A stretch of DNA of 64,000 nucleotides, from NCBI GenBank assembly GCA_963842525.1, contig CAWJGT010000027.1, positions 1-64,000 of the forward strand, written 5' to 3'. Within the stretch, counting starts at the first letter, position 1; each line of letters begins with the position of its first letter. The translations under genes and the position numbers were made by a program. The DNA is from an uncultured Holophagales bacterium (GTDB taxonomy: Bacteria; Acidobacteriota; Thermoanaerobaculia; Multivoradales; UBA5704). The notes beneath the pieces were generated by a model, which was not told where the DNA came from, did no database searches, and was given only the letters and a program-made list of their open reading frames with translations. This document shows, piece after piece, positions 1,133 to 30,592 of the stretch.

Positions 1133-2047
1133 GCACCTCGCGGCCGTCCTCGAACACGCCAACAAAGGCGGCTCCCATCTCATGATCCTCATGGTCATCG
1201 CCTACTACTGCGACGCGCGCGGCGAGTGGATCGTTGACCAGGCCACGCTTCAGAAGCGCACCCGCTTCAGGCGCCGCCGTGTCCAGCAGCTCCTCGACGA
1301 GCTGGTCAAAGCGGGGAGCTCGCCGTCACGCGCGGCGATGGCCGCGGCAAGCTCTCCAAGCTCTGCCTGCTCATCGGCCCACCCGCTCCCTTCCCCCCTC
1401 TCCCGGTGGAAGGGCGTGCGCTGGGAGAGGGGGGCCAGGGGGGTGAGGGGCTTCCGGAAAAGGGCGCAGGGGAGTGCACCCTTTCCGCCCAAAAGGGCGC
1501 AAGGGAGTGCACCCTTTCGGAGGAAAAGGGCGCAGAGGAGTGCACCCTTTCCGCCCAAAAGGGCGCAGAGGAGTGCACCCTTTCTGCCCAAAAGGGCGCA
1601 GAGGAGTGCACCCTTTCTCACCCCCCGGTCCCCCCTTTTCCCCCAGACCCCCAAATCCCCCCTTACCCCCCAAAAGCAAAAACAAAAAATCAGGAGACCT
1701 TCGGTCTCCGGCCCCTGTCGGGTCCGCAGAGCGGGGTCTTTCGAGCCAACCTTCTGCTCGACGAGGCGGGCATCCCTCGCCCGAGCCCTGCGCAGATCAA
1801 CCTCTGGTCGACGACCCTGGGAGGCATCGAGCCGCTCCTGGCCCTGCTGGGCCGGCTGATCCACGCCGGCCTCGCGACCAAGCGAGAGCCCCACGCCTAC
1901 ATCCACCGGGTCGTCATGGAGCAGGCCGCCAGGCCTGAGCCTGCCCATCCGGCCCGATCCGCCAATCCGATGCGCACCGCCGGAGTGGACGAGCTCCGGC
2001 GACAACAGGCCGCACGAATCATGGCCGGCAAGAAAGGTCACACATGA
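1129..2047 (+). CDS. Phage-type HTH replication initiator with internal iteron repeats (frameshifted in this sequence)
   Basis: N-terminal AVLEHANKGGSHLMILMVIAYYCD..QATLQKRTRFRRRRVQQLLDELVKAG (HTH_36-like); continues in other frames (GELAVTRGDGRG; KGAEECTLSAQ repeats); lies upstream of DnaC/DnaB-like genes. Confidence 0.7.
1391..1449 (+). repeat. REP-like family A copy inside initiator gene
   Basis: cccccctctcccgg..gggagagggggccaggggggtgagg. Confidence 0.85.
1458..1616. repeat. Five 33-bp palindromic iteron-like repeats (putative origin)
   Basis: AAAAGGGCGCA-N6-TGCACCCTTT units start at 1458, 1491, 1524, 1557, 1590; followed by an A-rich tract near 1672-1689. Confidence 0.85.
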
Positions 2048-12952: not shown

Positions 12953-14083
12953 TCAGCCGGCGCCTTCTGTGATCAGCCAATACCGGTTAGGAACCTGCCA
13001 AGCGTCCCAATTGTTGACAAATTGGCAGATTATTTCGGCAGCGGGTGACTGTCTGTCGTCTTGCGTCTCTTGGCCGTCGCCACCGTAGGACGTCAGCGCG
13101 AAGCCCTGGCTACATCCTTGGGTTTTGCCGGGAACGACCGGGCTGTAGAGCAAGGCTCTGCCCCATCCGTCGGTAGCGGATTGGACTCCTGGTGGAGCTG
13201 CGGAGGGGAAGCACCAGGTTTTGCCGGTGCGATACCGCGCATCGGCTTTGATGTCGTCGCAGAGCCGGCGGAGGGTCCCTACCGTCGTTGAGACCTTCTG
13301 GCGCTCGCCGTCCAACGTTGCCTTGACCGCCGCCGTTCCGTCGGGGACGACAGCAACGGCCTGCTGCGCCAACGCCTTCGCGTCCGCATACCTCGCCTGG
13401 GCCAAAGCCCGGCCGATTGCGGGGACATACCCCTTCTCGACCAATTTCATCGCTTGGTCTTTTTCGGCCAGCATGGCGGCAAGCTGCCAGGGCTCGTAAC
13501 TCTGGGCGGCATGACAGGCCTCGACCATTCCGTCGAGACCGTCGATCACGCTGGCGGCGAAGGAAGGATCCCCGAGCCCCTCCGCCCAGACGAGCTGCTG
13601 TTGGAAGGCGGAGGCGTTGCAGCCCATTGTTCGCGTCTGCGCGGTCAGCACCTGGCGATAGTCTGCTTCCAGCTCCTTCGCCAGCTCCGGGGACCGCTCC
13701 TTGACCCCGTCGAGGCATTGCTTCGCCTCGGTCCTCCGGTCGACGATCCGGACCGTCGCCTTGCCACATAGGAAGAGGGCCTGGCGGTGCTGCGGGTGCT
13801 CCGCGAGGAAGGGATCGAGCAGGGACCATGCGTCCTGGGCGCGGTCCTCCGCAAGCAACTTACGGGCGTCCCGGACAGCCTTGGCTTCTCGCAGGAAGGC
13901 AACGCCGGTCGTCACCACCAGCCACAGCGCGAGCAGACCCACCAGCGCCTGCCAAACCAATCTCTGCCAGGCAGGCTCCACAACTGGAGTGCGCAGGCTC
14001 TCCGCGATCTGCGGTCTGCCGCAAGCCCCGCAGTACGATGAGTCGGCGTCGGTGAAGGAAGAGCAACGTGGGCAGGTTGGCAT
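12953..14083 (-). CDS. Zinc-ribbon + TM + TPR-like protein with C-terminal GspG-like motif
   Basis: CPRC..CGACG; one TM; helical repeats; DGWGRALLY..FALTSYGGDG. Confidence 0.7.
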   Translation of the reverse strand: MPTCPRCSSFTDADSSYCGACGRPQIAESLRTPVVEPAWQRLVWQALVGLLALWLVVTTGVAFLREAKAVRDARKLLAEDRAQDAWSLLDPFLAEHPQHRQALFLCGKATVRIVDRRTEAKQCLDGVKERSPELAKELEADYRQVLTAQTRTMGCNASAFQQQLVWAEGLGDPSFAASVIDGLDGMVEACHAAQSYEPWQLAAMLAEKDQAMKLVEKGYVPAIGRALAQARYADAKALAQQAVAVVPDGTAAVKATLDGERQKVSTTVGTLRRLCDDIKADARYRTGKTWCFPSAAPPGVQSATDGWGRALLYSPVVPGKTQGCSQGFALTSYGGDGQETQDDRQSPAAEIICQFVNNWDAWQVPNRYWLITEGAG

Positions 14084-14084
14084 G

Positions 14085-14747
14085 TCATCGTCCTCCGAAC
14101 GAGACTCCCTTGCCTACCCTTTCGGCACGGGTGTTGAACTCGATCGCCAGAAACACGTCGATGGCTGTGGCCACGGAGTACAGCGAGATGAAGAGACCCG
14201 CGGCGACGGAGACGAAGAAAACGGACAGCGGAGCGGAGACCAGCAGCAGCTTGGGGGTTCCGGAGCTGATCCCGGACGCCATGCTCGGCGAGATGTCGCT
14301 CAGCATCGAGCCCATGAGAGCGCTGACCGGCTGAAGAAGAGAGCCCAGCCCTGTGCCGACGACATAGACCAGCGCGATCTCACCGAACCAGCGGAAGAGC
14401 ACCGACAGAGCACGGAGGCTTACGAAATCGTCGGCCGGAAGCGCTTGCAAGTGCCTCGCTCGGAGCATCGTGATCCTGAAGACCAGGGCGGCCGTGGCGA
14501 TCGAGATCATCTGGGCGAAGAACGCCTTCACCAGACCCCAGCGCTCGAACTGCTCGTAGATCCCGGGCCAGACGCCGATCCAGAGCAGCACGACGAAGAG
14601 CAGCCAGATGACCGCGCCGACCCGCAACACCCAGGGCAGCGACTGGCGCAACACGTCGCCGCTGTGGAGGTAGGCGAGCAGACCTCGGGCACGAGGCATG
14701 GGCAGCTTCGATCTTGCAACGGTCAAGCGTTCGAGAAGTATTGCCAC
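14085..14747 (-). CDS. Integral membrane protein (about 4 TM)
   Basis: Four hydrophobic segments; GGAGG RBS. Confidence 0.75.
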   Translation of the reverse strand: MAILLERLTVARSKLPMPRARGLLAYLHSGDVLRQSLPWVLRVGAVIWLLFVVLLWIGVWPGIYEQFERWGLVKAFFAQMISIATAALVFRITMLRARHLQALPADDFVSLRALSVLFRWFGEIALVYVVGTGLGSLLQPVSALMGSMLSDISPSMASGISSGTPKLLLVSAPLSVFFVSVAAGLFISLYSVATAIDVFLAIEFNTRAERVGKGVSFGGR

Positions 14748-14843
14748 ATTCGTCCTCCAGGAGACGGCGTTGCGCTCCAGAGCATCCGTTCGCTTCGTGG
14801 AGACACGGCGCCGGCCGAAAAGGTTTACCCGGCCCCGTCCAGG

Positions 14844-15590
14844 CTATCGCTTGTCGCGCATGAGAGTCCGGATGGCCTGCGCGGTTTTCTCGAGGGCGGT
14901 CGCCTGCGGGCCGCCTCCACTCGCTTGCTCCCCTTGCCACGCGGCCGACACCGGAACGGACAGACGCCGCCCGTTCGTGAGCTCGAGCGAGAACACCTGG
15001 GTCGGACGGAGCGGTCCGGTGCTGGGGCGGCGCCCTTTGTTGGCCGAGACGGCGACGTCCTCCTCCAACCTCACCGTGACCACGTCCCGGTAGTGATGCT
15101 CCTCGACGGAGACCTGCGAAGTGAGGCCCTCGAGGCAGTCGTGCTGGCAGGAATAGAGCCCGAGCTGGTCGTCCATCGGGACCAGGATCACAGCGCAGAT
15201 GACAGGGGAGCGGAGGCGGCTATCTTTTCCGGCCCGCGGCCGGACAAGAAACCGGCTTTGGGGCGCTGCGCCCCGCTCAACCGGCCCGTAGAGCGCGAGC
15301 GGCGGTTGCGCGTCAGGAGGAGGGTCGAGGCTGCGTAGCGCGTTCTGCACCAGGGACTGCAGGTCGCGGTCGAAGAGCTCATCAACTTCCCGATCCGAAG
15401 GCCGTCTCGTCTCCAGGATCAGCGCTACGCCGAGCCAGGCAAGACCGAACAGCAGCAGCACCTTCCCCGGCGAAAGCCCCACGAAGACCAGTCCGAGGAA
15501 AAGAGCGACGAAGGCATACCGGAGCCGCGTATCCAGGAAGTACAACCAGATCCGCTGCCTCTCGCCGGAGGTAAGAGTCGCGTCGGTCAT
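14844..15590 (-). CDS. Membrane-anchored hypothetical protein
   Basis: Two N-terminal TMs then soluble beta-rich domain; ATGA overlap with CHAT gene. Confidence 0.75.
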   Translation of the reverse strand: MTDATLTSGERQRIWLYFLDTRLRYAFVALFLGLVFVGLSPGKVLLLFGLAWLGVALILETRRPSDREVDELFDRDLQSLVQNALRSLDPPPDAQPPLALYGPVERGAAPQSRFLVRPRAGKDSRLRSPVICAVILVPMDDQLGLYSCQHDCLEGLTSQVSVEEHHYRDVVTVRLEEDVAVSANKGRRPSTGPLRPTQVFSLELTNGRRLSVPVSAAWQGEQASGGGPQATALEKTAQAIRTLMRDKR

Positions 15591-17227
15591 TCCCGTATTC
15601 CCTCCTTTTCACCCATTCGGTCCACCTCGGCGGCTGACGCGGGGACAAGCTGGAGAAGATGCTTCAACCCTTCGGGTTCCCTCCGAGCTGCGGCCGCACG
15701 CTTCAGCAGCTCATCGTAGCTCGGCTCCGCAGGGAGCAGATAGTTCTCGAGATAGAAGTCCCGCAGCAGGAATGCCAGAAAGCAGAAATGGTGTGCCGCG
15801 CAACCGTCGCTTTCAAGCGCGCGGCGGGCGCTCGCTTCGATCTGCCGGATCTCATTGATCTTGAGGTAGCGGGGGCGGCGGCCTTCCAGCAGGGCCAGCG
15901 CCAGGTAGTAGTGGAGATCGGAAAGATCCACCCCTTGCTCAAGGCATGCCTCGACCACCTGCCTTGCCCTGCTATAGGACCGGGTTTTCAGCAAGCTGGC
16001 GGCGCGGGTGACCGCTTCTTCCTCTCGGGTTGTGCGGTTGTCCGCCGCCGCGCATAAGGGCCGGAACACGCCAGACTCGGAAAGTGCCGTGAACAAAGCC
16101 GGCGTGATCCACTCCCAGGACTCGGGCTCCTCCTGATAGAGAGCGAGCCGGCCGTCGGCGACGGCTGCCTCCAGCGAGCTGCCGCGGACCAACGAACGGT
16201 ATACCGCCTCGCTGAAGATCCTTGCGGCTATGTCCGAGATCGGAAACTGCATCGCGACAACGGCAGGCACGCCGCCGCGGACGAGCGCGGCGGCCGTCCC
16301 CAGGAGGGGGTTCTGACCGGGGCGGTGCCCGACCTGCGCTGTCTCGCAGGAGTTGAGGAACACCAGACGCAGCTCGCGGCTGGCACGAAGGGTGGCGGCG
16401 AGCACGCTGCTGGAGACCGAGTCAGGCTCGCCCTCCGGGGTCGCGAGGAACAGCGAGCCCACGCCGGTCTCGGCGTCACAGCAGCCGTGGGCAATGAAGT
16501 GGACCACCTGATAGTGATCAGACCTGAGCGCCTCGGAGAGGTTGCGCAGGGTCGCCGACAGTAGCAGCTTGACCTCGGCGTTCTGCTGCTCGTACCAGGC
16601 TTTGAGGATGCGAGCTCGTTCGTCGGCATCGTCGAGAGGCGCGAGGCCCCGGGGGGTGGCGACCGCAATGAGAATGCGGATCCGGGCCGCGCCGGTCTCC
16701 GGGAAGGGCGCGGAAACCCCGGAGAGCGCAATCTGCCGCACAACCGGTGTCAGGACGTCTCTGGCGAGAAAGCCGCTCTGCTCAGAGTAAAGCAGCTCCC
16801 AGGGGATCGCTTGGAGAAGCCCCGAGTCCGCAGTATCTGCCGGCAAGACGATGCGGATCCGCAGACCACGGTCGGGGAGCGACTGAAACCGCCCGCGACA
16901 CTCCAGGTAGGTGTCCCGGATGGCCCCATGGAATAGAGCCTGGAAGAGCCGAGCACCAGTCTCCTGGAACGTCGCTCGAGGCTCGCGCCCCGGCTCCACA
17001 CAGACAAGATGTCTGGCCGGCTGGAGACCTCCTGCGCGGGGGCAGCGGAAGAGGCCCGTTCCGACCGCGCGGATCATCTCTTCCACCTCACAGCGGTGGA
17101 CAGGAAGAGTGAAGGGCGCTGTTGCGTGCCCGCACGGCGAGCTCAGGGTGCGTACCTGATGGCGGCCGTCACGATCCGGCTCGATGGCGAGCGCCAGGTC
17201 TTCGTATTGGATAAGCCGGGACATCAT
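15587..17227 (-). CDS. CHAT (caspase-like) domain protein
   Basis: IPWELL, VHFIAHG (His), VFLNSCET (Cys), GVPAVVAMQFPISD; helical C-terminus. Confidence 0.9.
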   Translation of the reverse strand: MMSRLIQYEDLALAIEPDRDGRHQVRTLSSPCGHATAPFTLPVHRCEVEEMIRAVGTGLFRCPRAGGLQPARHLVCVEPGREPRATFQETGARLFQALFHGAIRDTYLECRGRFQSLPDRGLRIRIVLPADTADSGLLQAIPWELLYSEQSGFLARDVLTPVVRQIALSGVSAPFPETGAARIRILIAVATPRGLAPLDDADERARILKAWYEQQNAEVKLLLSATLRNLSEALRSDHYQVVHFIAHGCCDAETGVGSLFLATPEGEPDSVSSSVLAATLRASRELRLVFLNSCETAQVGHRPGQNPLLGTAAALVRGGVPAVVAMQFPISDIAARIFSEAVYRSLVRGSSLEAAVADGRLALYQEEPESWEWITPALFTALSESGVFRPLCAAADNRTTREEEAVTRAASLLKTRSYSRARQVVEACLEQGVDLSDLHYYLALALLEGRRPRYLKINEIRQIEASARRALESDGCAAHHFCFLAFLLRDFYLENYLLPAEPSYDELLKRAAAARREPEGLKHLLQLVPASAAEVDRMGEKEGIRE

Positions 17228-17462
17228 CCTCCTCCCTCAGGTTACCTCAGGCTACGCGCTTCCGCCCCTTCGGGCTGGCGGTGTGTCGCCGTGTGACAAA
17301 AAGGCGCTGGCGCGAGTCTAACTCTTTAATCGTGCCCGGCCGGGCGAATCGTGGCGCTCGGTGAGGAAGAGCAGTCCCACTTCCGCCGCTCGGCGCACCT
17401 CTATTTTTAGGAGCATTCCGGGGAACGCCCTCCCTCCCCACCCCTTGAACAGGAGGAAAACG

Positions 17463-20400
17463 ATGCTGAGAAAGCTTGTCGTTTGCATTGCGACTCTGCT
17501 CGCCTTTGCGGCGGGCACCGCGGCGTACGCCGAATCCTCTCCCTACGAGATCCAGTTGCTCCGCGGGAGCTTCACGCCGGCGCCCGGCACGCGGCCGAGC
17601 GGGCTTCAGCGCCTCGCCCAGGCGGCGGCCGCCACGCCCGGACAAAAGGTCCATGTCCTCCTCCAGCTCCACGAGATCCCGGCCGATTTCCAGGATCTGG
17701 TGCGCGCGGGAGTCGACTTTGGCCCCTATGCCACGGGCCGGGCCTGGGTCGTCGGGATCCCGGCGGCTGTGCTGCAAACCATTTCGACGCGCCCCGATGT
17801 GCGCGCGCTGGTGCTCTGGGACGCCACGCGCAAGGTCCATCCGCGCGTTGCCGCCGGTGACTATGCCCCCTGGACGCGCGACGAATCGCGCCCCGGCTGG
17901 GCCATGCTGTTCGTCCAACTCCACCACGACGTGCCGATCGAGAACGGCTACGCGCTGGCCGACGCCATCGGCGGCGCCGCCATGCCACCGGTCGAGGGCC
18001 TGCACGGCATGACGATCTGGGTGGAGGAAGGCAAGGTCAAGGATCTGGCGGCCTCGGAAGACGTGCTGTGGATCCAGGAAGGGCCGCCGCCGCTCACCGA
18101 GACCAACGACGGCGTGCGCGGCACCATGAAGGTCGACGTGGTCAACAATGCGCCCTACAACCTGACCGGCACCGGGGTGCGCGCCTTCGTCTTCGACGGC
18201 GGCACCGTGCGCTCCACGCACGAGACCTTCAACAGCGGCGGCGGCAGCCGAGTGACCAATCTCGACGCCACGGCGATCTCCAGCCACTCCACGCACGTGG
18301 CCGGCACGGTGGGCGGCGACGGCGCGCCGTCGAGCGCCGGCGGCCGGGGCCGCGGCGTGGCGACCGGCACGACGATCCTCTCGGCCGGCTACCAGCAGGT
18401 CGGCGGCACCATGCTGTTCTGGGACAACGCCGGCGACATCGAGACCGACTACACGCTCGGCCGCAATACCCACAACGCCGACCTCGTCAACAACTCGATC
18501 GGCAGCAACACGGCGGCGAACGGCTATCCCTGCACGCGTGAGGGGGATTACGACCTCACCGGGAGCCTGCTCGACGGCATCGTCCGCGACGACAACCCCT
18601 CGATCAACGGCTCGGTGATCCTGGCCTGGGCCGCCGGCAACGAGCGCGGCGGTGCCGCCGGCCGTTGCGGCGCGAACTACAACACCACGGCCCCGCCGTC
18701 GTGCGCCAAAAACCCGATCCACGTCGGCGCCCTCAACTCGGACGGCGGCTCGATGACCAGCTTCAGCAGTTGGGGCCCGTGCGACGACGGCCGCCTGAAG
18801 CCGGTCATCTCCGCCCCGGGCTGCGAGACCGGCCGGGTCACCGGCGAGACCTTCGTCTATTCCTCGCTCAGCAGCTCCGACGTTGCCTACGGTGGCTTCT
18901 GCGGCACCTCGATGGCCACCCCGGCGGTCACCGGCACCATCGCGCTGTTGATCCAGGACTGGCGCAACCGCGGCTTCGGCGGCGTCAACGACCGGCCTCT
19001 GCCGGCGCTGGTCAAAGGCTGGCTGATCCACGGCGCGCGCGACCTGGGCCTCGACGGGCCGGATTTCATCTACGGCTACGGCGGAGTCAATGCCCAGAAA
19101 ACCGTCGACATCGAGCGCGGCGGCAACGGCACGCTCGGCGACGCCGCGACCGCCTGGGGGACCGATTCGGCCACCAACGGCAGCATCGACAGCTTCTTCG
19201 TCACCGTGCCCGCCAACACGGCGGAGCTCAAGGCCACCCTGGCCTGGGACGACTTTGCCGCGGCGGCCTTTACCGCCAGCGCCCCGGTCAACAACCTGAC
19301 GCTCGAATTGATCGCTCCGGATACGAGCGTGCGCCAGGCCTTTGTGCTCAATGCCGGCAGCCCCAACCAGGCCGCGACCACGGGTGCCAACGCGTTGGAC
19401 AACCAGGAGCAGGTGCTGGTGCAGAGCCCGGCGGCCGGCGTCTGGACGGTGCGCGTGACCGGCACCAGCGTGCCCCAGGGCCCGCAGACCTACAGCCTGA
19501 TTTACACCTATGCGGGGACGCCGATCGATCCGGGCACCTGCGCCACGACCAGCTCGACGTACGAAGCCGGCACCGATAGCTGGACGCTGACCGGTGCGAC
19601 GCGCGTCGCGGCTCCCGCGGCCGGCCACGGCAGCTTCTCGCTGCAATTCGGCGGCGCCAACAGCACCACGCACGAGGCGACCCGCGACTTCACCATCCCG
19701 GCCGGCGCCACCAAGGCCGAATGGACCTTCTTCTGGTACATGACCACCCTGGAGGGCTCCTCCGGCTTCGGCTACGACTCCTTCCGCGCCGAGGTGCGCT
19801 CGACCACCGGCACCGTCCTCGCCGTGGTCGACACCCGCTACGACGGCTGGACGGCGGCCACCTGGCTCAGGATGGAGAACATCGACCTGACCCCTTGGGC
19901 CGGCCAGACCGTGCGGCTCGCCTTCCGCGCGGTCAACGACACGACCCTGCCCTCCACCTTCTGGGTCGACGATGTGGGAGCGGAGACCTGCGGTGGCGGC
20001 GGTCCGTTGCCGCCGGTGACGCTCACCTTCACCTCGGTTGCCAACCAGGATGGCCGGGTCCTCGAGTCAGGGGAGAACTCCAATGTCGGCGGCTCGAACA
20101 ACAGCAACGCGTCGAACACCTCCGCCCTGCGCGTAGGCGACGACAACCAGAACCGGCAATTCAAGACGATCGTGTCGTTCGACACCTCGTCGATCCCGGA
20201 CACCGCCACCATCCTCTCGGTCACCGTGCGGTTGCGGCGCGGCAGCGTCACCGGGGCCAATCCGTTCACAACGCACGGCACCTGCCAGGTGGATATCCAG
20301 AACGGATCGGGTTTCGGCGGCTCGACGGCGCTCGCCAATGCCGACTTCCAGGCCGCGGCCACCGCGGTCGGCGTCACCAGCCTGAGCAACGCCCTGGCCA

Positions 20401-20594
20401 ACAACGACTGGTCGGAAGGCGCCCTCAACGCCGCGGGCCTCGCGGCGATCAACAAGACCGGCACCACGCAGCTCCGGGCCTACTTCTCGCTCGACGACAA
20501 CAACGACAACGGCAACGACTACATGGGCTACTACTCCGGCAACGACGGGAAGCTCGGCCAACCGGCCGCAGCTCGTCGTCATCTACCAGCCGTA
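17463..20594 (+). CDS. Secreted S8 (subtilisin-like) serine peptidase with C-terminal accessory domains; frameshift near 20550
   Basis: FDGG (Asp), HSTHVAG (His), AAGNE, GTSMATP (Ser); natural end [13 protein letters not shown] in shifted frame. Confidence 0.9.
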
Positions 20595-20639
20595 GACGGC
20601 CAAGGTAAGCGCAGGCTCCTCGGCGGCACGCCGCGGAGG

Positions 20640-20775
20640 AGCCTCTGGACCGTGGCCCTCCGCAAGCTCGACCAGCTCGATTCCGCCGAGAGCCTCGACG
20701 ATCTCCGGAGCCCGCCCGGCAACCGCCTGGAGGCTCTCGCGGGTCACCGCGAAGGCCAACACGGCATCCGCGCCG
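20640..20775 (+). pseudogene. HigB/RelE-type 'plasmid maintenance killer' toxin fragment
   Basis: [40 protein letters not shown]; no start, no C-terminus, no antitoxin. Confidence 0.75.
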
Positions 20776-20871
20776 GCATCGCCGAAGCCGCCGAGCTGAA
20801 GCGCATCGGAAGCCTCCAGCTCGCGCCCGCCGCCGTCAGTCACTGACCGCCAGCAGGATGACACGCCGGTG

Positions 20872-21835
20872 TCAGAAGCCTCCGGCGGCCATGGCGAGGA
20901 CGTACAGGACAGTGCCCAGGAGGCCGATGCCGGCCGCTATGAAGGTCCAGGTTGCCGCCTGTTTGGCCGCCGCCTGCGCGCCGGCGAGATCACCCGCGAG
21001 ATACTTCTTGTCGACCTGGGTCGCGAAATAGATCCCGAGCCAGCCCACCAGGGGGCAGCACATCACGGTCGCCAGGATCGACCATACGAGGTAGTTGTCG
21101 GGCTTCACGCCCGTCGGCTGCGGGCTCGGAAATGGGGCTGGAGGCCTCGGGGCCGGCGGTATCGGTGTTGGCCCAGGCACGGGGCGCGGTGGCTGACCGG
21201 ACTGGAGCTGGTCGATCTCGGTGGCCACCTGATGGGACACGTCAGGGCGCTCGCGCAGCATCCTGAGCAGCCGCCGGGCGAGCTCCGCCTCGTCGCCGTG
21301 CAGCCTTGCCTTCAGCTCGGACAGCAGCCGCAACTGGTCCGGGCGCGCGAGCCTCTCCGGGTGCCTGGACCTGACCCCGCAAGTCGGTGAGGTAGGAGAT
21401 CGGCACTTCCGGGCGTGGAGGCATCGGATCGGGGAGCGGCGGCGCGGGCTGGATACTGCCGGTCCCGCGCACCAGGTTGAGAAGGCTGTTGCGGTCGCCC
21501 GGCTTGTAGGAGATCCACTGCGCCTCCGCAATGCGCTGCGGGAACAGGCCAGGGCTGACGTCCTCGATCTTGATGGGCAGGAAAGGCTTCCCCAGCGCGA
21601 TCGCATAGGCGGCCTCGCGCTCGCACGCTGTAGAGGTAAGGTAGGCGTCGCTGAGCACGGGGACGAATACATCACATTGCTCGATCTGCCGCAGGAGCTC
21701 GTCCCACCAGGACTGGCCCCCAGCCAGCTCGCTGTCGAAAAAGGCCGAGTAGCCACAGCCCTTGAAGTCGGCGTCCAACTGTTCCGTCACCGGGCGATTC
21801 ACCCGTGCGTAGCTGATGAAGATTTTTCTTGCCAT
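20872..21835 (-). CDS. TIR domain + CD225/dispanin (IFITM-like) membrane protein; one frameshift near 21360
   Basis: KIFISYAR..FFD..GGQSWWDEL..S..CERE (TIR); [37 protein letters not shown] (CD225). Confidence 0.8.
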
Positions 21836-21957
21836 CGCTGGAGAAATTCTATCACCCGTCAACCGTGAACGTCGATCGACGGGCCGTGGATTGACTGGCG
21901 TCCCCGGTGGGGCTAGCGTTACACGACTGGCTGCATCGTTTGCAGGAGGAGGTATGT

Positions 21958-23478
21958 ATGGTGTCCTCGAGATCGCAGGTCCTGTCGGCGGTATTGGGGG
22001 GATGGCTGGCTGTGTCGGCGTGGGCGGCGGAGCCGCCGGCGCCGATCATTGGCGAGACGATCGACGTCCGCGTCGTCAACGTCGAAGCGGTGGTGACGGA
22101 TGAGACGGGCGGGCGGGTGCGCGGGCTTGCTCCGGCCGACTTCCGGCTGCTGGTCGACGGCAAGGAGGTGTCGATCGACTACTTCACCGAGGTGGCCGAA
22201 GGAGAGACGGCTCCGGCGGCGGGAAAGGCAGGGGGCCCGGTGGCGCCGCTCCCTCCGGACGAGCAGGTCGGACGGTCCTATCTGGTCTTCATCGACGAGT
22301 CGTTCTCGGTCGCGGAGCAGCGCGACGGCATCCTCACCGCTCTGGAGCAGGGGCTGGCGCGGCTCGGCCCCGCCGACCAGATGGCGGTTCTGGCCTTCGA
22401 CGGCAAGGAGATCGACGTCCTCAGCCCCTGGACCTCGGACACCGCGGCGCTCGCCCGGGTCCTGCGCGAGGCCCGGCAGCGCGAAACGCGCGGCAGCCAG
22501 CTCCTGGCCCAGCACCGCAGTGTGGAAGGGGATGTCGACATGCTGGTCGAAATGGCCGAGCAAGGCTTGCTGGAAGGCGACCAGCTCCTCGAGGCCAACG
22601 CCTACCTGGAGAAACGGGTCAGCCCGGAAGCGCGCTCCCAGCTCGGCCGGACCGCGCCCGCCATCGCGGCGGCCCTGCGCGCGTTCGAGGCGCCTCCCGG
22701 GCGCAAGGTCATGTTCCTCCTCTCCGCCGGCTGGTCGCTGACGGTTGCGCCCCAGCTCTTCGGACCGGTGCTGGAGGCCGCCAACCGGCTCGGCTATACC
22801 CTCTATCCGGCCGACGCCTCGGTGCACACGCCCGAGGTCCTCAAGTTCCTCGACGCCTTCGCCGCGCGGACCGGGGGCAAGGTCGTGACCGCGGACCTGA
22901 AGAGCAACGCCTTCGAGCAGGTCCTGAACGACTCCGGCACCTACTACTGGCTCGGCTTCACGCCGTCCTGGAAGGGCGACAACCGCCGCCACGCGGTCCG
23001 CGTCGAGGTGCGCCGGCCGGGCCTGCGCGTGCGGGCGCGGAGCGGCTTCTCCGACCTGGCCCGTCCCACGGAGGCCGGGCTCCGCGCCGAGGGCATCCTG
23101 CTCTTCGGCGGCAGCTCGCAGGACAAGCGGCTGGTCGTCCAGATCGGCCAGCCCCGTCCCGCCGGACGCAAGGAGGTGGAGCTGCCGGTCAGCCTGAGCG
23201 TCCCCATCGACGCGCTCGTCCTCACCCAGGGCGAGGGAGGCTATGTGGCCGAGCTGCCGCTCGCGGTCTCCGCCATCGACGCCAAGGGAGGGCGCGCCGA
23301 CCTCCCGGGCATGCGCCTGAAGATCGTCCTGCGCCAGATCCCGAAAGGGGGAGGGCTCGCGCGGTTCCAGACCGTCGTGAAGGTCCGGCGCCTGGAGCAG
23401 CGGCTGGTCTTCACCGTCGAGGATGCGACGCGCGGGTCCTTCCTCTGGGGCGAGGCGAGGTACACGCCTGCTCCCTAG
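21958..23478 (+). CDS. VWA-related Acidobacterial domain protein (paralog 1)
   Basis: Signal peptide; ETIDVRVVNVEAVVTD..GL..DF; PGRK; YYWLGFTP. Confidence 0.85.
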   Translation: MVSSRSQVLSAVLGGWLAVSAWAAEPPAPIIGETIDVRVVNVEAVVTDETGGRVRGLAPADFRLLVDGKEVSIDYFTEVAEGETAPAAGKAGGPVAPLPPDEQVGRSYLVFIDESFSVAEQRDGILTALEQGLARLGPADQMAVLAFDGKEIDVLSPWTSDTAALARVLREARQRETRGSQLLAQHRSVEGDVDMLVEMAEQGLLEGDQLLEANAYLEKRVSPEARSQLGRTAPAIAAALRAFEAPPGRKVMFLLSAGWSLTVAPQLFGPVLEAANRLGYTLYPADASVHTPEVLKFLDAFAARTGGKVVTADLKSNAFEQVLNDSGTYYWLGFTPSWKGDNRRHAVRVEVRRPGLRVRARSGFSDLARPTEAGLRAEGILLFGGSSQDKRLVVQIGQPRPAGRKEVELPVSLSVPIDALVLTQGEGGYVAELPLAVSAIDAKGGRADLPGMRLKIVLRQIPKGGGLARFQTVVKVRRLEQRLVFTVEDATRGSFLWGEARYTPAP

Positions 23479-23482
23479 AGCG

Positions 23483-25099
23483 ATGGCCTCGCCACGGGGC
23501 CATCTCGACGTGCCGGTACCCGGCGCTACCGTGGGTCCGGGAGCCTTCCAGCTCCTCGGCTGGGCGGCCGACGGTCGCGGTTCCGTTGCGGTCGACATCG
23601 AGATCGACGGCGCGCTCGTGGGCCGCGCCAACATCGGCCTGTCGCGACCCGACGTGGCAGAGGCCCTGGGCCATGCCAATGCCGCCTTCGCGGGATGGGA
23701 ATGCATGCTCGACCTCCATCGCCTCGCGGCCGGCCGCCCGTCCCTGCGGATCGATGCCTTCGCCCAGGGCCGGGACGGCGGACGGACCCTTATCGGCACC
23801 GTCGCCATCGCCGTCGAAACAGCGGCACCGGCGTTCAGCGAGTCTCCTGCGGCGGCTCGCGCCGGTGAGCTGCGGCGCCGTCTCGAGCTCCTCCTCGCAC
23901 GGCACCCCACGCCGCCACCACCGCCGCCGTCGCCGGCGAGGCCCGTGAGGATCCTCGCCGTCCTCCATAGCCTCGACCGCGGCGGCAGCCAGCTCATCCT
24001 GCTCGAGCGGTTGCGCGAGCTCGCTGCCGCCGGGGAAGCGGAGGCGATGGTCGTCAGCCAGACCGACGGCCCGCTGCGCGACGAATTCGAAGCCAGCGGC
24101 TTCCCCTGCCACGTCAGCGGCTGGCTGGTCCAGCCGGATCCCGTTCTCTACGAGGGGAAGATGGCCGAGCTGGCCATGTGGTGCCGGCCGCAAGGTTTCG
24201 AGCTGGTCCTGGCGAGCACGATCGGCGTCAGCCCTGCCATCGACCTGGCGCTGCGGCTCGGCCTGCCGAGCCTGTGGTTGATCTACGAGCGGCCGGTCTC
24301 CAAACATCACTTGTCCCCGTTCCTCTCGATGCGATGGCCTGCCTATGCGATCGCGCAGGCGGAAGATGCGCTGCGCCGCTGCTCGCTGATCGTCTTCGAT
24401 TCGGATGCCTGCCGGCGCGACTACCTCCACCGGGCACCTCCCGAGCGGCTGCTGACCATCCCGGGGGCGATCGACCTGCGAGCCATCGATCGCTTTCGGG
24501 CCGGCTTCGACCGCGCGGCGGCACGCCGCGCCCACGGCCTGCCCGACGATGCCGTGCTGGTGCTCGGTCTGGGCTCGATCCTCGTCCTCAAGGGAACGCC
24601 GCTGCTGCTGCAGGCGTTCGCCACCCTCGCCGGCGAGCGCGCCGACCTGCGGCTGGCGCTGGTGGGCTCGCGCCGCGACGCTCTGGCGGAGGCTCTCGAG
24701 CGGTTTGTTGCCGCGCGGGGGCTCGGCGATCGCGTCCGCATCGAGCCGATGGGGGCGGCGGCGTACGACTGGCTGGCGATGGCCGACCTCCTGGTCTGCC
24801 CCAGCCATCGCGAGTCGATGCCGCGCACCGTCATGGAGGGGATGGCGTTCGAGGTCCCGGTGGTGGCTTCCGCCGTGGGCGACGTGCCGAGCGTCCTCGT
24901 CGACGGCACCACCGGCTGGCTCATACCGCCGAGCGATCCCGCCGCGCTGGAACAAGCGATGCGCCGCGCGCTCGCCGCTTCACCCGAGCAGCGAGGCCGG
25001 ATGGTCGAGGCAGCCGCCCGCCATGTCCGGGAGCATCGCGATGCACCCCGGGCGGCTGCGAGCTTCGCGGAGGCGGTGCGGCGTGTCGCCGTGCGATGA
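23483..25099 (+). CDS. Glycosyltransferase family 4 with N-terminal Ig-like domain
   Basis: HSLDRGGSQ, KG, ESMPRTVMEGMA, VVASAVG. Confidence 0.85.
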   Translation: MASPRGHLDVPVPGATVGPGAFQLLGWAADGRGSVAVDIEIDGALVGRANIGLSRPDVAEALGHANAAFAGWECMLDLHRLAAGRPSLRIDAFAQGRDGGRTLIGTVAIAVETAAPAFSESPAAARAGELRRRLELLLARHPTPPPPPPSPARPVRILAVLHSLDRGGSQLILLERLRELAAAGEAEAMVVSQTDGPLRDEFEASGFPCHVSGWLVQPDPVLYEGKMAELAMWCRPQGFELVLASTIGVSPAIDLALRLGLPSLWLIYERPVSKHHLSPFLSMRWPAYAIAQAEDALRRCSLIVFDSDACRRDYLHRAPPERLLTIPGAIDLRAIDRFRAGFDRAAARRAHGLPDDAVLVLGLGSILVLKGTPLLLQAFATLAGERADLRLALVGSRRDALAEALERFVAARGLGDRVRIEPMGAAAYDWLAMADLLVCPSHRESMPRTVMEGMAFEVPVVASAVGDVPSVLVDGTTGWLIPPSDPAALEQAMRRALAASPEQRGRMVEAAARHVREHRDAPRAAASFAEAVRRVAVR

Positions 25100-25256
25100 C
25101 TTGGCCGGAGGTGTCCTCTCCTGGAGACACCCCGTACCCTCGCGGGGTCTCCGCCCGGTGGTACGATCCCCCGAAATACCTGATTCTGCGACCTTTTCGT
25201 CGCCGGCACCCTCTTTGCTAAGCGCTCAAGCGTTTCCAGAGGAGGAATGAGGAGGA

Positions 25257-27032
25257 ATGAGAATGACTACACCAGTCAGGTTGTTGTTCGCGGCCCTGAT
25301 GGCCGGGGCTCTTGCGGTCTCGGCTCAGACGCGCCCGGCGAACGAGGCCGTCGCCGAAACCTTCGGCGAGGCGATCGACGTCCGCGCCGTCAACGTCGAG
25401 GCAGTAGTCACCGACTCGTCGGGCGAGCGGGTGCGGGGGCTGTCCGCGGCCGATTTCCGGCTGCTGGTCGACGGCAAGGAGGTGCCGATCGACTATTTCA
25501 CCGAAATTGCGAACAGCCAGGCCGCGGCTCCGGCCACCCCGGCGGCTGATGCCGGACAGGCCGGGACCACCGGAGAGACGGCGCCGCAGGCGCCGGCCTT
25601 CGGAACGGTGGGCCGCAGCCTCCTGATCTTTGTGGACGAGAGCTTCTCTCTCGAAACCGACCTCGAAATCGTCCTCCTTCGCCTGCAGAGCGCGCTGCAG
25701 GCGCTGGGGCCCGAGGACCAGGTGGCCGTCGTGGCTTTCGACGGCCGGCGGCTCACGGTGTTGAGCGACTGGAGCCGGGACCGGGCCGCGATCGGAGCGG
25801 TGCTGGAGGCAGCCCGCCAGCGGCCCGCGCATGGGATCCTCGTGAAAGCGGAGCACCAGGCAGTGCTGAACAACGCCATATTCAAGGCTGAGGCCGAGGT
25901 TGCGGCCAGCGGCGAGGACGGAAGCGTCGTCCCCCAGTTGGACCTCTGGCCAGGCTCGGCGGCGCCAGCCCTGAGGGCCGGCCGGTCCTCGCTGGAGACC
26001 GCTGCGCTCGACTCCCTCGCGGGCCTGGTGCCCCAGAGCAGGTCCCGGGTGAGCCGGGTGGGCGCGGCCACTATCGCCGCGTTGCGCAGCTTCGCCTCGG
26101 CCCCGGGGCGCAAGGCTGCGCTGCTCCTCTCCGGAGGCTGGCCGCTCGGGACGGCGCCCGACGTCTTTCCGCGCCTGGTCGAAACAGCCAACCTGCTCGG
26201 CTATACCCTCTATCCGATCGACGTGACCGGGATCGAGGCTCCGCCGGTGCAGTTGACGGACGCCCGCATGGGGCCGGTCGACCTGGCGGCGCTGACCGGC
26301 TCGGCCATGAACGTGAACACGGTCTACACCTTTATCTCGTCGGACTACGAGCAGGACGTGGAGCTCGGCCTCAAGCTCCTGGCGCGGGAGACGGGAGGCC
26401 AGGCCTCCCTCAACTCCAACCGCCTCGCCGCGCTCGACCGGGTGTTGACCGATACGAGCTCCTACTACTGGCTCGGTTTCAGCCCGACCTGGCGCGCCGA
26501 CGGCCGGCGTCATTCGATCCGGGTGGAGGTGCGGCAGCGGGGCCTGGCGGTCCGCTCCCGCAACGGCTACTCCGACCTGACCCGCGAGGCGGACCGGGCG
26601 CTGCAGATGGACAGCCGCCTGGTCTTCGGCGGCGTGTTGCGCGAACGGCGGCTCCTCGTCCAGGTCGGCGCGCCGCGGCTCCTCGACCGGCGCACGATGG
26701 AGGTGACCGTGACCCTGCAGGTCCCCGCGGACGTCCTTCCGCCGAGCACGACGGGCGGCAGGTACACGGCCGAGCTGCCGCTGCGGATCGCCGCCGTGGA
26801 CGACCGGCACAACCGGCTCGAGCTCGAGCCTCTGAAGCTGCGGGTCGACCTCGACCAGGCCCCTCCCGCGTCCGGCTACGCCCGCTTCCAGACGACCCTG
26901 AAGCTGCCGCGCCGCAACTCGACGCTGCGGTTTGCGGTGCACGACCCGATCGGCGACAAGCTGGTCTGGGGCGAGACGGAGGTGACGGCCGAGGGGGTCC
27001 AGGGGCACGGCTTGCCGGAGAGGTCCCGGTGA
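25257..27032 (+). CDS. VWA-related Acidobacterial domain protein (paralog 2)
   Basis: Same motifs as paralog 1. Confidence 0.85.
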   Translation: MRMTTPVRLLFAALMAGALAVSAQTRPANEAVAETFGEAIDVRAVNVEAVVTDSSGERVRGLSAADFRLLVDGKEVPIDYFTEIANSQAAAPATPAADAGQAGTTGETAPQAPAFGTVGRSLLIFVDESFSLETDLEIVLLRLQSALQALGPEDQVAVVAFDGRRLTVLSDWSRDRAAIGAVLEAARQRPAHGILVKAEHQAVLNNAIFKAEAEVAASGEDGSVVPQLDLWPGSAAPALRAGRSSLETAALDSLAGLVPQSRSRVSRVGAATIAALRSFASAPGRKAALLLSGGWPLGTAPDVFPRLVETANLLGYTLYPIDVTGIEAPPVQLTDARMGPVDLAALTGSAMNVNTVYTFISSDYEQDVELGLKLLARETGGQASLNSNRLAALDRVLTDTSSYYWLGFSPTWRADGRRHSIRVEVRQRGLAVRSRNGYSDLTREADRALQMDSRLVFGGVLRERRLLVQVGAPRLLDRRTMEVTVTLQVPADVLPPSTTGGRYTAELPLRIAAVDDRHNRLELEPLKLRVDLDQAPPASGYARFQTTLKLPRRNSTLRFAVHDPIGDKLVWGETEVTAEGVQGHGLPERSR

Positions 27033-27141
27033 GAGCTCGTCCGGCCGGGTAGACGTGCGAAACAAACCCCCTCGCGGGTTTGTTGTGGTTTGTTGTCAGA
27101 AGGGAAACCGCGCGGCCGTGGGCCGCCCCAGGGAGGCATTC

Positions 27142-28803
27142 ATGAGATCTCTTCACCAGACCACCGTCTTCACCGGCCTCCTGCTGAGCGCCGCGCTCGC
27201 CGCCGGCGCGCAGCAGCAGCCGCCCGCCGTAGAGCCGCCGCCGAGCATCTTCGGCGACCAGATCGAGGTGCGGGTCGTCAACGTCGAGGTGGTGGTCACC
27301 GACAAGCAAGGCAATCGCGTCGCGGGCCTGCAGCCGCGCGACTTCGTTCTGCGGGTGGACGGCAAGGACGTGCCGGTCGAGTACTTCAGCGAGGTGCGCG
27401 GCGGCCAGGCGATCGCCGCCGGCGCCGCCGCGGAGGAGAGCCCGCTGCCCGGTCTGCCGAGCCTGGCGCCGGGCAGCCCCGTGGGCACCAGCTACCTGGT
27501 GTTCATCGACGACTTCTTCTCGATCGCGCCGCGCCGCAACGAGGTTCTGCGCGCCCTGAAAGGACAGCTCACCCAGCTCGGGCCCGACGACCGCATGGCG
27601 ATCGTGGCCTACGACGGCCGCGAGCTCGAGATGCTGAGCACCTGGTCCAATTCCGAGCGGACGCTGTCGCGCGCCCTGGACCAGGCCGTCGGCCGCCAGG
27701 CGCTGGGCTTCCAGCGCCTCTCGGAGCTGCGCAGCTTCGACACCACCAGCCGGCTCCACGCCACCATGGGCGTGGTGCCCGGCCCGCGCTCCACGTTCGG
27801 CACGCAGCTCAACCTCGAAGAGATCTCCTATGCGCAGCGCCTGGCCGGGCAGGTCGAGCGGGTGGTCTCGGCGGCGGTCAGCACGCTGCGCGGCTTCGCC
27901 GCGCCTCCGGGCCGCAAGGTGATGCTCCTTCTCGCCGGCGGCTGGCCCGCCTCGCCGGCGGACTTCGCGATCAACAACCCGAACCGGCCGATCGTCAGTC
28001 GCGACGTGCCGCGCGGCGAAGACCTGCTGCGGCCGTTGACCGACACCGCCAACCGCCTGGGCTATACCCTCTACCCGGTGGACGTGCCCGGGGTCGAGGG
28101 CAGTGGTCCGGACGCCTCGATGGGCGGTCCCCAGGACGTCGGCCTCAACCTGCGCGAGCAGGAGATCCACGCGTCCCTCCAGCTCATCGCCAACGAGACC
28201 GGCGGCAAGGCGCTCCTCAACTCGTTGCGCGAGAGCGTGCTGCCCGACGTGACGGCCGACACCCGCTCGTACTACTGGCTGGGGTTCACCCCCACCTGGC
28301 AGAGGAACGACGCGCGGCATGAGGTCGCCGTCGAGGTGACGCGCCCCGGGCTCAGGGTCCGCTCGCGCGACAGCTTCCTCGACCTGTCGCGCAAGACCGA
28401 GGTCTCCATGCTGGTCGAGAGCGCCATGCTCTTCGGCAGCGCCCCCGGCGCCACCCAACTGCCGATGCAGGTAGGCAAGCCGGTCCGCGCCGGCCGCCGG
28501 GAGATCGAGGTCCCGCTCAGCCTGGCGATCCCGGCGGACGGCATCACCACGGTGCCGATCGAGGGCAAGAACGTCGCCGAGCTGGAGCTGCGGGTCGCGG
28601 CCGTGGACGTCGACGGAAACCGTTCGTCGATCCCGGTGATCCCCCTCCGGGTCACCCTCGACGGCGTTTCCGAGACCGCGGGCAAATTCCTGCGCTACGA
28701 CACCAAGGTCCGGCTGCGGCGCATCGGCCAGCACCTGATCGTGGCGATCTTCGATCCACTGAGCAACCGGATTCTCACGGCCGAGGCGGACGTGACCCCG
28801 TGA
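27142..28803 (+). CDS. VWA-related Acidobacterial domain protein (paralog 3)
   Basis: GGAGG RBS; EVRVVNVEVVVTD; PGRK; YYWLGFTP. Confidence 0.85.
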   Translation: MRSLHQTTVFTGLLLSAALAAGAQQQPPAVEPPPSIFGDQIEVRVVNVEVVVTDKQGNRVAGLQPRDFVLRVDGKDVPVEYFSEVRGGQAIAAGAAAEESPLPGLPSLAPGSPVGTSYLVFIDDFFSIAPRRNEVLRALKGQLTQLGPDDRMAIVAYDGRELEMLSTWSNSERTLSRALDQAVGRQALGFQRLSELRSFDTTSRLHATMGVVPGPRSTFGTQLNLEEISYAQRLAGQVERVVSAAVSTLRGFAAPPGRKVMLLLAGGWPASPADFAINNPNRPIVSRDVPRGEDLLRPLTDTANRLGYTLYPVDVPGVEGSGPDASMGGPQDVGLNLREQEIHASLQLIANETGGKALLNSLRESVLPDVTADTRSYYWLGFTPTWQRNDARHEVAVEVTRPGLRVRSRDSFLDLSRKTEVSMLVESAMLFGSAPGATQLPMQVGKPVRAGRREIEVPLSLAIPADGITTVPIEGKNVAELELRVAAVDVDGNRSSIPVIPLRVTLDGVSETAGKFLRYDTKVRLRRIGQHLIVAIFDPLSNRILTAEADVTP

Positions 28804-28837
28804 CGCGTCCCGTATAATCCCCCGAGAGAGCGAACCT

Positions 28838-30592
28838 ATGAACGCACATCGACATCTCCTGGCCGCCTCCCTGGGGCTCGTCCTCCTGCTGAGCGCGGGG
28901 GCCGCCGCCCACTCCCAGGGCACGCAGAAGAAACCGCAGACGCCCCCCAAGCCCCAGGCCAGCGCGGCAGAGAGCGAAGACCAGGGGTTCTTCGTCGACA
29001 CGGTCAACGTCAGCGTCGTCAACGTCGACGTCTACGTGACCGACAAGAAGGGGAACCGGATCAACGGCCTGACCCAGGACGACTTCGAGATTTTCGAGGA
29101 CGGCCGGCCGGTGGCGATCACCAATTTCTTTGCTGTCCAGGACGGCAAGGCCGTGTCCCCGCAGGCCGAGGAGGCCGCGGAGCCGGCGCCGTCCACACCG
29201 GGAGCGCCGGCGCCTCCCCCGGGCACGGAGCGGCCCAAGGTCCCCGAAGACCAGCGGCTGCGGCTCGTGGTCTACATCGACAACTTCAACATCCACCCCT
29301 TCAACCGCAACCGGGTGATGGGGGAGATCCGGGCGTTCCTCAACCAGCACCTGTCGCGCGACGACCAGGTCATGCTGGTGTCCTACGACCGGTCGCTCCA
29401 CATCCGCAACCGCTTCACCAGCGATCCCGGCATCATCGCGGCGGGGCTGACCGAGCTGGAGAAGGTCTCCGGGCACGCCGTCCACCACGACTCCGAGCGC
29501 CGCGACGTCCTCAACAGGATCGAGGATTCGCGCAACGTCAACGAAGCCCTGAGCTACGCCCGCACCTACGCCCAGTCGACCTACAACGACCTGGCGTTCA
29601 GCATCGACGGGCTCAAGCAGCTCGTCGATTCGCTCGCCGGGCTGCCCGGGCGCAAAGCGGTCCTCTACGTCAGCGACGGCCTGCCGATGATCGCCGGCCA
29701 GGACGTCTTCTATGCCGTCCAGAGCAAGTACAGCGACCAGAGCACGGGGCTGACCGAGCAGTTCGAGTTCGACACCTCGCGCCGCTTCAACGAGCTGACC
29801 GCCCAGGCCAACGCCAACCGCATCACCTTCTACACGATCGACGCGGCGGGCCTGCGGGTCTACTCCTCGGTCTCGGCCGAGAACCAGTCGGCGGGGCAGG
29901 GGGTCTACATCGACTCGGTCCAGATCTCCAACCTGCAGAGCACGCTCCAGACCCTGGCCGAGAAGACCGGCGGCGTCGCCATCATCAACGCCAACCGGGT
30001 CATGCCGCAACTGGAGAGGATCGCCCGCGACTTCAACAGCTACTACTCGCTGGGCTATTCGCCGGTCCACAGCGGCGACGGGCGGTACCACAAGATCGAG
30101 GTGAAGCTGAAGCAGCGCACCAAGGGGCTGCTGGTGCGGCACCGCGAGGGCTACCGCGACAAGAACACCGAGGCCCGCATGTCCGACGGCACGCTCGCCG
30201 CGCTCAACTTCGCGGTCGAGAACAACCCGCTCGGCGTCGAGCTCGAGCTGGGCCAGCCCACACGCCGCGAGGACGGCTTTTACCTGCTGCCGGTGGTGGT
30301 CCGCATCCCGATCGGCAAGCTGGTGCTGGTGCCGCGCGACGGCAAGCACGAAGCGCGGGTGCGGCTGTTCATCGCCGCCATCGACGGCTCGGGCAACACC
30401 TCGGACGTGCAGCAGGTGCCCGTGCCGATCAGCATCCCCGAAGCGGACCTGGCCACCGCGACCCGCAAGAGCTACACCTATTCGGTGAGCCTGCTGATGC
30501 GCAGCGGCAACCAGAAGGTCGCCGTCGGGGTGCGGGACGACATCGCCGCCGAGGCGTCGTTCGTCACCCGGGAGCTGCGCGTAGGACCCTAG
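28838..30592 (+). CDS. VWA-related Acidobacterial domain protein (paralog 4)
   Basis: VSVVNVDVYVTD; LPGRKAVLYVSDG; YYSLGY. Confidence 0.88.
   Translation: MNAHRHLLAASLGLVLLLSAGAAAHSQGTQKKPQTPPKPQASAAESEDQGFFVDTVNVSVVNVDVYVTDKKGNRINGLTQDDFEIFEDGRPVAITNFFAVQDGKAVSPQAEEAAEPAPSTPGAPAPPPGTERPKVPEDQRLRLVVYIDNFNIHPFNRNRVMGEIRAFLNQHLSRDDQVMLVSYDRSLHIRNRFTSDPGIIAAGLTELEKVSGHAVHHDSERRDVLNRIEDSRNVNEALSYARTYAQSTYNDLAFSIDGLKQLVDSLAGLPGRKAVLYVSDGLPMIAGQDVFYAVQSKYSDQSTGLTEQFEFDTSRRFNELTAQANANRITFYTIDAAGLRVYSSVSAENQSAGQGVYIDSVQISNLQSTLQTLAEKTGGVAIINANRVMPQLERIARDFNSYYSLGYSPVHSGDGRYHKIEVKLKQRTKGLLVRHREGYRDKNTEARMSDGTLAALNFAVENNPLGVELELGQPTRREDGFYLLPVVVRIPIGKLVLVPRDGKHEARVRLFIAAIDGSGNTSDVQQVPVPISIPEADLATATRKSYTYSVSLLMRSGNQKVAVGVRDDIAAEASFVTRELRVGP

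Follow-up and report, generated by a model that had tools for sequence, protein, structure and literature searches.

The window analysed here, a stretch of 64,000 nucleotides (nt) from an uncultured Holophagales bacterium (source genome G000), contains on its minus strand a gene in which a TIR domain is fused to a CD225/dispanin membrane domain (Table 1). An earlier note, made from the letters alone, had described the product as one membrane-anchored TIR protein joined to CD225 by a helical and proline-rich linker and interrupted by a single frameshift, and in most respects that description holds. Both TIR_2 and CD225 exceed their Pfam cut-offs, the CERE motif retains the Glu at the catalytic position, the two hydrophobic segments are present, and the C-terminus, whose agreement with CD225 had been set beforehand as one of two points on which the proposal could fail, matches the domain along its full length, CC motif included. 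The linker was read correctly only in its proline-rich part, as the segment taken for a helical linker folds into a four-helix domain that is conserved. The CD225 domain carries, besides CC, the G-D and A-X6-A motifs and GxxxG (as GDLAG). In the model of an intact homologue (mean predicted local distance difference test score 86.4) the TIR domain is followed by the proline loop and by four helices (149-212), after which a disordered linker leads to a helical hairpin. The nearest solved folds to the TIR of this model are SARM1 (E 5.8e-6) and SPARTA (E 3.2e-5), and the best solved CD225 relative is PRRT1 (E 4.6e-6) rather than an IFITM. We take the topology to be of the IFITM type, with the TIR cytoplasmic and only a few residues facing outward, and therefore the CD225 version would have no outer ligand-binding domain. 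The promoter-like site upstream (one found, 0.2 +/- 0.4 expected from shuffles) would yield an almost leaderless mRNA. The codon usage of the gene is mildly atypical (12th-25th percentile), which is no proof of foreign origin.

Table 1. Features of the TIR-CD225 locus, numbered along the window.
Feature	Position	Strand	Details
Whole TIR-helix-CD225 gene	20872..21835	minus	ATG at 21835, stop at 20872-20874; 964 nt, a multiple of 3 plus one; 320 amino acids (aa) read through; one extra base inside
Promoter-like site: TCGACG, 18 nt, TG-extended TAGAAT	21846..21875	minus	Consensus match only; ends 10 nt 5' of ATG
TIR domain (Pfam TIR_2)	21500..21823	minus	E 6.7e-22; 78.7 bits (cut-off 28)
CERE motif with catalytic-position Glu74	21614..21625	minus	Glu in 237/238 family units
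Conserved proline loop PxPxPxxPxxP between TIR and helical domain	21401..21442	minus	Family alignment
Frameshift, one extra G	21352..21353	minus	Alignment with the intact homologue L129; GG at 21353/21352
Four-helix domain, unnamed	21199..21400	minus	Models; almost exclusively behind this TIR type
Proline-rich linker, variable	21106..21198	minus	Low model confidence
CD225/dispanin domain, two hydrophobic segments	20902..21105	minus	E 5.1e-22; 78.2 bits (cut-off 27.1); 68/68 positions; VMCC 21066-21055, CC 21055-21060, GDLAG 20980-20994; hydropathy peaks 1.81 and 2.12
HigB-like toxin gene fragment, neighbour only	20652..20771	plus	Covers 28-67 of the 91 profile positions; runs towards the TIR gene

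The frameshift that the earlier note had placed between the two halves is one extra G, and a codon-usage Viterbi detector, built without reference to this gene, also put a single "extra base" switch in it. The break falls inside the helical domain, the first frame covering profile positions 2-32 and the second 32-87 (profile length 89), and hence the halves are not two genes; that candidate was rejected on this ground and on the existence of intact single-frame homologues. A real frameshift would make the locus a pseudogene, a decayed and recently acquired defence gene beside the HigB fragment. It could then encode no more than a soluble TIR of 197 aa that includes half of the helical domain. 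We regard this reading as distinctly unlikely. It would be consistent with the break being spanned by no read (three public contigs of one run, 181-471 nt, match the region identically and none crosses the break), with the absence of a partner gene at the locus, with the fragmentary state of the adjacent higB, and with the fact that congener controls show frame switches as well (7 in 358 kb, or 0.195 per 10 kb, across 20 regions of three congeners). Against these stand the 1,455 switches counted over the 8.14 Mb of coding sequence in G000 (1.79 per 10 kb), of which 1,126 are extra bases, and the state of the two halves, both of which are free of in-frame stops and have kept their motifs. Switches affect 957 of the 6,741 predicted genes of G000, and ten lie in the 50.5 kb of coding DNA within the window. 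The next gene also argues against decay, as this subtilase (Peptidase_S8, 17361-20846, plus strand) has a similar one-base excess near 20550 relative to two paralogues, some 800 nt from the break in the TIR gene, which the codon-usage detector overlooked. The natural stop of the subtilase is at 20593-20595, and its listed 1161-aa frame continues into the HigB-like fragment. The frameshift is most likely an assembly error because the frame-switch rate of G000 is about nine times that of the congeners, a nine-to-one ratio that rests on controls from species other than G000, and split genes in this assembly are best regarded as probable errors.

The TIR-CD225 fusion genuinely exists and recurs, and we regard it as a novel variation on TIR signalling. 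In a search with the read-through protein, 6 of the 25 matches were single-frame TIR_2+CD225 proteins (32-65% identity), and together with 35 of 35 new ones they bring to 41 the intact proteins that pass both Pfam cut-offs. Automatic database names already combine TIR and CD225, and the Atlas holds a 56-member TIR_2+CD225 cluster (269 aa, score 0.87, a lead only) as well as a TIR+TM2 cluster. Among the 149 best representatives at 50% clustering, 143 combine a TIR with the helical domain, and 36 additionally end in a CD225-like tail, a share inflated by the inclusion of CD225 in the search profile. Across 238 TIR+helix units the TIR pocket is nearly invariant (E74 in 237; D34, W44, and S68 each in 238), and so are the proline loop (P135 in 235, P139 and P142 in 238, P145 in 237) and two residues of the helical domain (Q167 in 237, R196 in 230). 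When the helical domain itself was searched with, 36 of 39 matches had TIR_2, two more started mid-TIR and one was unclear. Pfam, PDB sequences, Foldseek, VIA-align and the Atlas gave it no named relative, with no recurrent Pfam match among 72 members, no Foldseek match at E<=0.001, and a best structural match to generic helical repeats (Z 8.2, root-mean-square deviation 2.2, 66 aligned); a new fold is not thereby shown. GTDB contains 340 stretches that encode relatives, and the 80 kept span ten named phyla, of which Actinomycetota is the most frequent (34). The distribution of the helical module is patchy, its profile matching 0 of 150 other genomes of the same class; 50,697 phage records gave no match, and one plasmid record covers TIR+helix. 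In some single proteins the TIR+helix unit, or just the helical domain, is repeated in tandem (P0030, P0033, P0071, and L130).

What follows the helical domain varies. At least one hydrophobic segment is found there in 62 of 78 family members, and the tails include PASTA, NHL, Lcl_C, DUF6636, DUF2510, WD40, TPR and PknH_C, together with STAND, SIR2, patatin and CD225. The larger unit consists of TIR, proline loop, and four-helix domain, and CD225 is only one of the many tails that can be exchanged on it. The idea that two innate-immunity domains are specifically joined here is therefore not supported in that form: the architecture does not unite two immune domains in a unique way, and the CC motif persists in 15 of the 44 fusion rows and is lost in 29. 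These 44 CD225 rows include two that are identical and the window's own row; on the TIR+helix tree they require 22 changes, of which well-supported branches force at least nine, while shuffles average 40.9. A single CD225 clade is rejected (approximately unbiased test, p-AU 1e-50) in a 31-row subset, picked after the tree was seen, of 16 of the 44 CD225 rows and the nearest non-CD225 rows. One ancient TIR-CD225 fusion was rejected as a candidate on these trees; the CD225 tail has been gained or lost many times, gains not being separable from losses. In P0096 and P0141 a TIR, DUF2510, and CD225 lie in one chain.

The variety of tails would also suit a role outside defence, in which TIR+helix is the output of modular transmembrane receptors for envelope or environmental cues, much like bacterial Ser/Thr kinases, and CD225 is merely an anchor. 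The first eight tails named above fit this idea, and several of these domains also serve as kinase sensor domains. Most neighbours are housekeeping genes, and in three Acidimicrobiia loci (L062, L075, and L103) a free CD225 gene lies directly upstream of a family TIR gene with a DUF2510-type tail, accompanied in two of them by DUF2752. We nevertheless think it unlikely, in view of the recurrent SLATT, SLOG, TPR-S, RyR, STAND, and CHAT neighbours, the fusions to SIR2 and patatin, and a patchy distribution that suits defence genes better than core signalling.

A link to a known mechanism comes from the neighbourhoods of the relatives. Five other CD225 fusions have DNA that can be read around them, and a SLATT-type gene adjoins four of these (L102, L107, L145, and L144, the exception being L129), the CD225 call in L145 resting on a custom profile of this analysis. 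The four neighbouring effector genes belong to one family of 500-550 aa, and they follow the fusion gene immediately downstream on its own strand in L102, L107, and L145, which form one clade, but lie tail-to-tail with it in L144. In L148, the wider L145 region, the TIR-CD225 and SLATT genes abut on one strand. Both effectors scanned pass the NCBIfam model SLATT_1 (47 and 42.3 bits, cut-off 41), and the effector carries two SLATT-like repeats. The four SLATT-adjoined fusions fall in two clades, one of which includes the window protein; L144 and L130, both beside the effector, join the window protein in a well-supported seven-row group. In the wider family, 19 loci have SLATT, SLOG, TPR-S or RyR-domain neighbours, and the 18 of them placed in a tree need 9 changes. 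The link of relatives to defence-type genes is supported. Other genes were seen beside TIR+helix genes, namely a RyR-domain gene of 630-800 aa (L051, L074, L087, L138, L142, and L143; directly upstream on the same strand in the first three) and MAP3K_TRAF_bd/TPR-S with LSDAT SLOG genes (L052:2074-5365, L091:7680-10971, and L085:3654-6551), with a patatin gene in L091.

From the observed architecture, motifs, and neighbours we infer the catalysis, clustering, trigger, and defensive outcome of a hypothetical mechanism. We propose tentatively, at somewhat under even chances, that the protein is a TIR sensor, anchored in the membrane and competent as an enzyme, which belongs to a Thoeris-like signalling system and is orphaned in this genome. 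It is read as a signal-making TIR because of its near-invariant pocket, the fold match to SARM1 and SPARTA, and the SLATT neighbours of its relatives. The sequence shows a single protein made up of a TIR, taken to be cytoplasmic, the proline loop, the four-helix domain, a flexible linker, and the CD225 membrane hairpin. The conserved pocket would cleave NAD+ once several TIRs come together. The trigger would be set by the variable tail. In sister proteins this is a membrane helix with an outer sensory domain, and CD225, almost without an outer part, would be limited to anchoring, clustering, or responding inside the membrane. The ADP-ribose product, to judge from the neighbouring genes, would open the pore-like SLATT membrane effector and so halt the infected cell. 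In this genome, with no cognate effector adjacent, the protein may signal to effectors encoded elsewhere or be a leftover half. A more far-reaching version, which we consider rather unlikely, is that of a widespread and undescribed class of receptor-like TIR sensors, each with the new four-helix domain and an exchangeable membrane or outer sensor tail. It would detect infection at the cell envelope and use an NAD-derived signal to open effectors, SLATT among them, with the CD225 hairpin turning the membrane disturbance of phage entry into TIR clustering. If true, this would be the first native function for bacterial dispanins, antiviral and older than animal IFITMs. Tailed phages are not known to enter by membrane fusion, and therefore the IFITM mechanism is not directly transferable.

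In favour of a Thoeris-like sensor, genes of the SLATT, SLOG (LSDAT_prok), TPR-S or RyR-domain kinds, some of them matched in part only, are present at 19 of 96 family loci and at 1 of 29 control regions, and the gene has a patchy distribution. Several observations weigh against it. Of the 19 positive loci, 7 provided the queries, and the controls are acidobacterial rather than taxon-matched; the other 77 family loci are without such neighbours within the DNA available. Most neighbours of family loci are unrelated housekeeping genes (the domain scan covered 99 selected of 530 neighbours), and PADLOC matched 8 of 142 immediate neighbours, all via generic domains. The effector N-terminus is weakly SLOG-like (cpYpsA, E 0.0055, below cut-off), with no PDB sequence or LSDAT match, and GxxxG is kept in just 21 of the 44 fusion rows. 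G000 has no match to LSDAT_prok, SLATT_1, DUF4231 or the SLOG-like-SLATT protein, two SLATT-type family searches being blank in control genomes as well, and with 84 TIR_2 matches in this genome one more TIR is nothing special there. Finally, neither the window gene nor its closest intact relative, L129, has an effector neighbour. The latter point would fit a stand-alone effector, in which CD225 clusters the tethered TIR in infection or envelope stress and NAD+ is drained without a partner gene. It would also suit the promoter-like site that the window gene possesses and the closest fold matches, SARM1 and SPARTA, whose TIRs deplete NAD; single-gene TIR defences, some with transmembrane parts, have been reported in E. 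coli (PMC11350192). We judge this explanation unlikely to be right, as the SLATT gene beside four of five other fusions speaks for a signal acting on a distinct effector, and likeness of fold does not reveal the product.

Returning to the proposed Thoeris-like sensor, the window locus itself is not a Thoeris member as it stands, since the TIR gene is flanked by the HigB fragment, the subtilase, and a VWFA gene, with no TIR-effector operon. The source genome (9.95 Mb, 34 contigs) has one CD225 match and seven TPR-S matches, the latter all away from the locus. No full-length TIR-CD225 match was found among 40 relatives, and none of nine congener regions around the VWFA cluster, one of them on a contig that stops 1.2 kb upstream, contains a TIR or CD225 part. 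That cluster consists of four VWFA-type genes in tandem (21958-30592, plus strand), conserved in the genus (5/5 congeners) and split here by a glycosyltransferase of family 4 that was absent from the congener regions compared; the VWFA neighbour exceeds the cut-off of the acidobacterial VWFA model, from which the host would probably be an acidobacterium. On the minus strand, 12953-17227 holds four co-oriented genes, a CHAT-domain protein and three without a Pfam match (two with hydrophobic segments and one with an N-terminal CxxC pair), a group that, CHAT paralogues excepted, was not seen beside congener VWFA clusters. Further away, a DnaB-family helicase (2044-4278, plus strand) has some 300 additional residues N-terminal to its DnaB domain.

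Our literature search, which left subscription journals mostly uncovered, found no description of a TIR-CD225 fusion or of the TIR+helix module, and the supplements of a recent Thoeris survey may list this cluster. Bacterial CD225 proteins have been proposed as ancestors of the IFITMs (PMC3282796), mycobacterial ones restrict influenza in human cells (PMC4488726), and a native role in bacteria was not found in the parts of this literature examined. A TIR output with an adjacent SLATT effector would provide a direct readout of the role of CD225 in bacteria (NAD product, cell arrest, plaques). The window gene is an orphan with an indel, and its intact relatives are the better objects for such tests.

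Among known systems, the closest is type VII Thoeris, in which phage-triggered cyclic ADP-ribose from a TIR (ThsB) activates a SLATT effector (ThsH) and defends the cell (10.64898/2025.12.03.692087). Shared with it is a TIR with the catalytic-position Glu next to a SLATT gene, in four of the five other CD225 fusions (one pair tail-to-tail). In contrast, the family TIR adds the four-helix domain and the CD225 hairpin, the effector, about 500 aa long, combines a weakly SLOG-like N-terminus with two SLATT-like repeats, and the window copy is without an adjacent effector. Profiles of the Thoeris ThsB type remain far below cut-off (ThcB4, 28.6 bits vs 220), PADLOC gives weak generic TIR matches only, and neither "CD225" nor "helical" occurs in the main text of the survey. 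The TPR-S neighbours may resemble the hydrolase-TPR effector described there for type VIII (10.64898/2025.12.03.692087).

With the CD225/dispanin family (IFITM3, PRRT1/2, and bacterial dispanins; PF04505) the window protein shares the full Pfam match, the two hydrophobic segments, the dispanin motifs CC, G-D, and A-X6-A (PMC3282796), and GxxxG, through which IFITM3 oligomerises (PMC7665892) and whose loop position is occupied here by GDLAG. Such domains are reported to occur widely among bacteria, and IFITMs make up only a minority of the human members (PMC3282796). The difference is that CD225 is here fused to an enzyme domain and has lost CC in most fusion rows; bacteria are said not to S-palmitoylate (PMC3282796). 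The TIR NADases of SARM1 and SPARTA share the fold and the Glu, at about 20% identity, and the family is without their ARM/SAM or APAZ/Argonaute parts. SARM1 has a Trp four residues before the catalytic Glu, where the family has Ala in 195 of 238 units. Toll-like receptors are comparable in architecture only. They differ in that the family TIR is N-terminal, the reverse order, with no leucine-rich repeats, that the enzyme pocket is kept, and that the CD225 variant is almost without an outer domain, whereas the sister proteins share with them an outer domain, a membrane helix, and a cytoplasmic TIR. Some Toll-like receptor features seem absent from bacterial TIR systems, as a survey remarks (PMC11350192), and the wider family would bring membrane-anchored, receptor-like sensors into TIR signalling.
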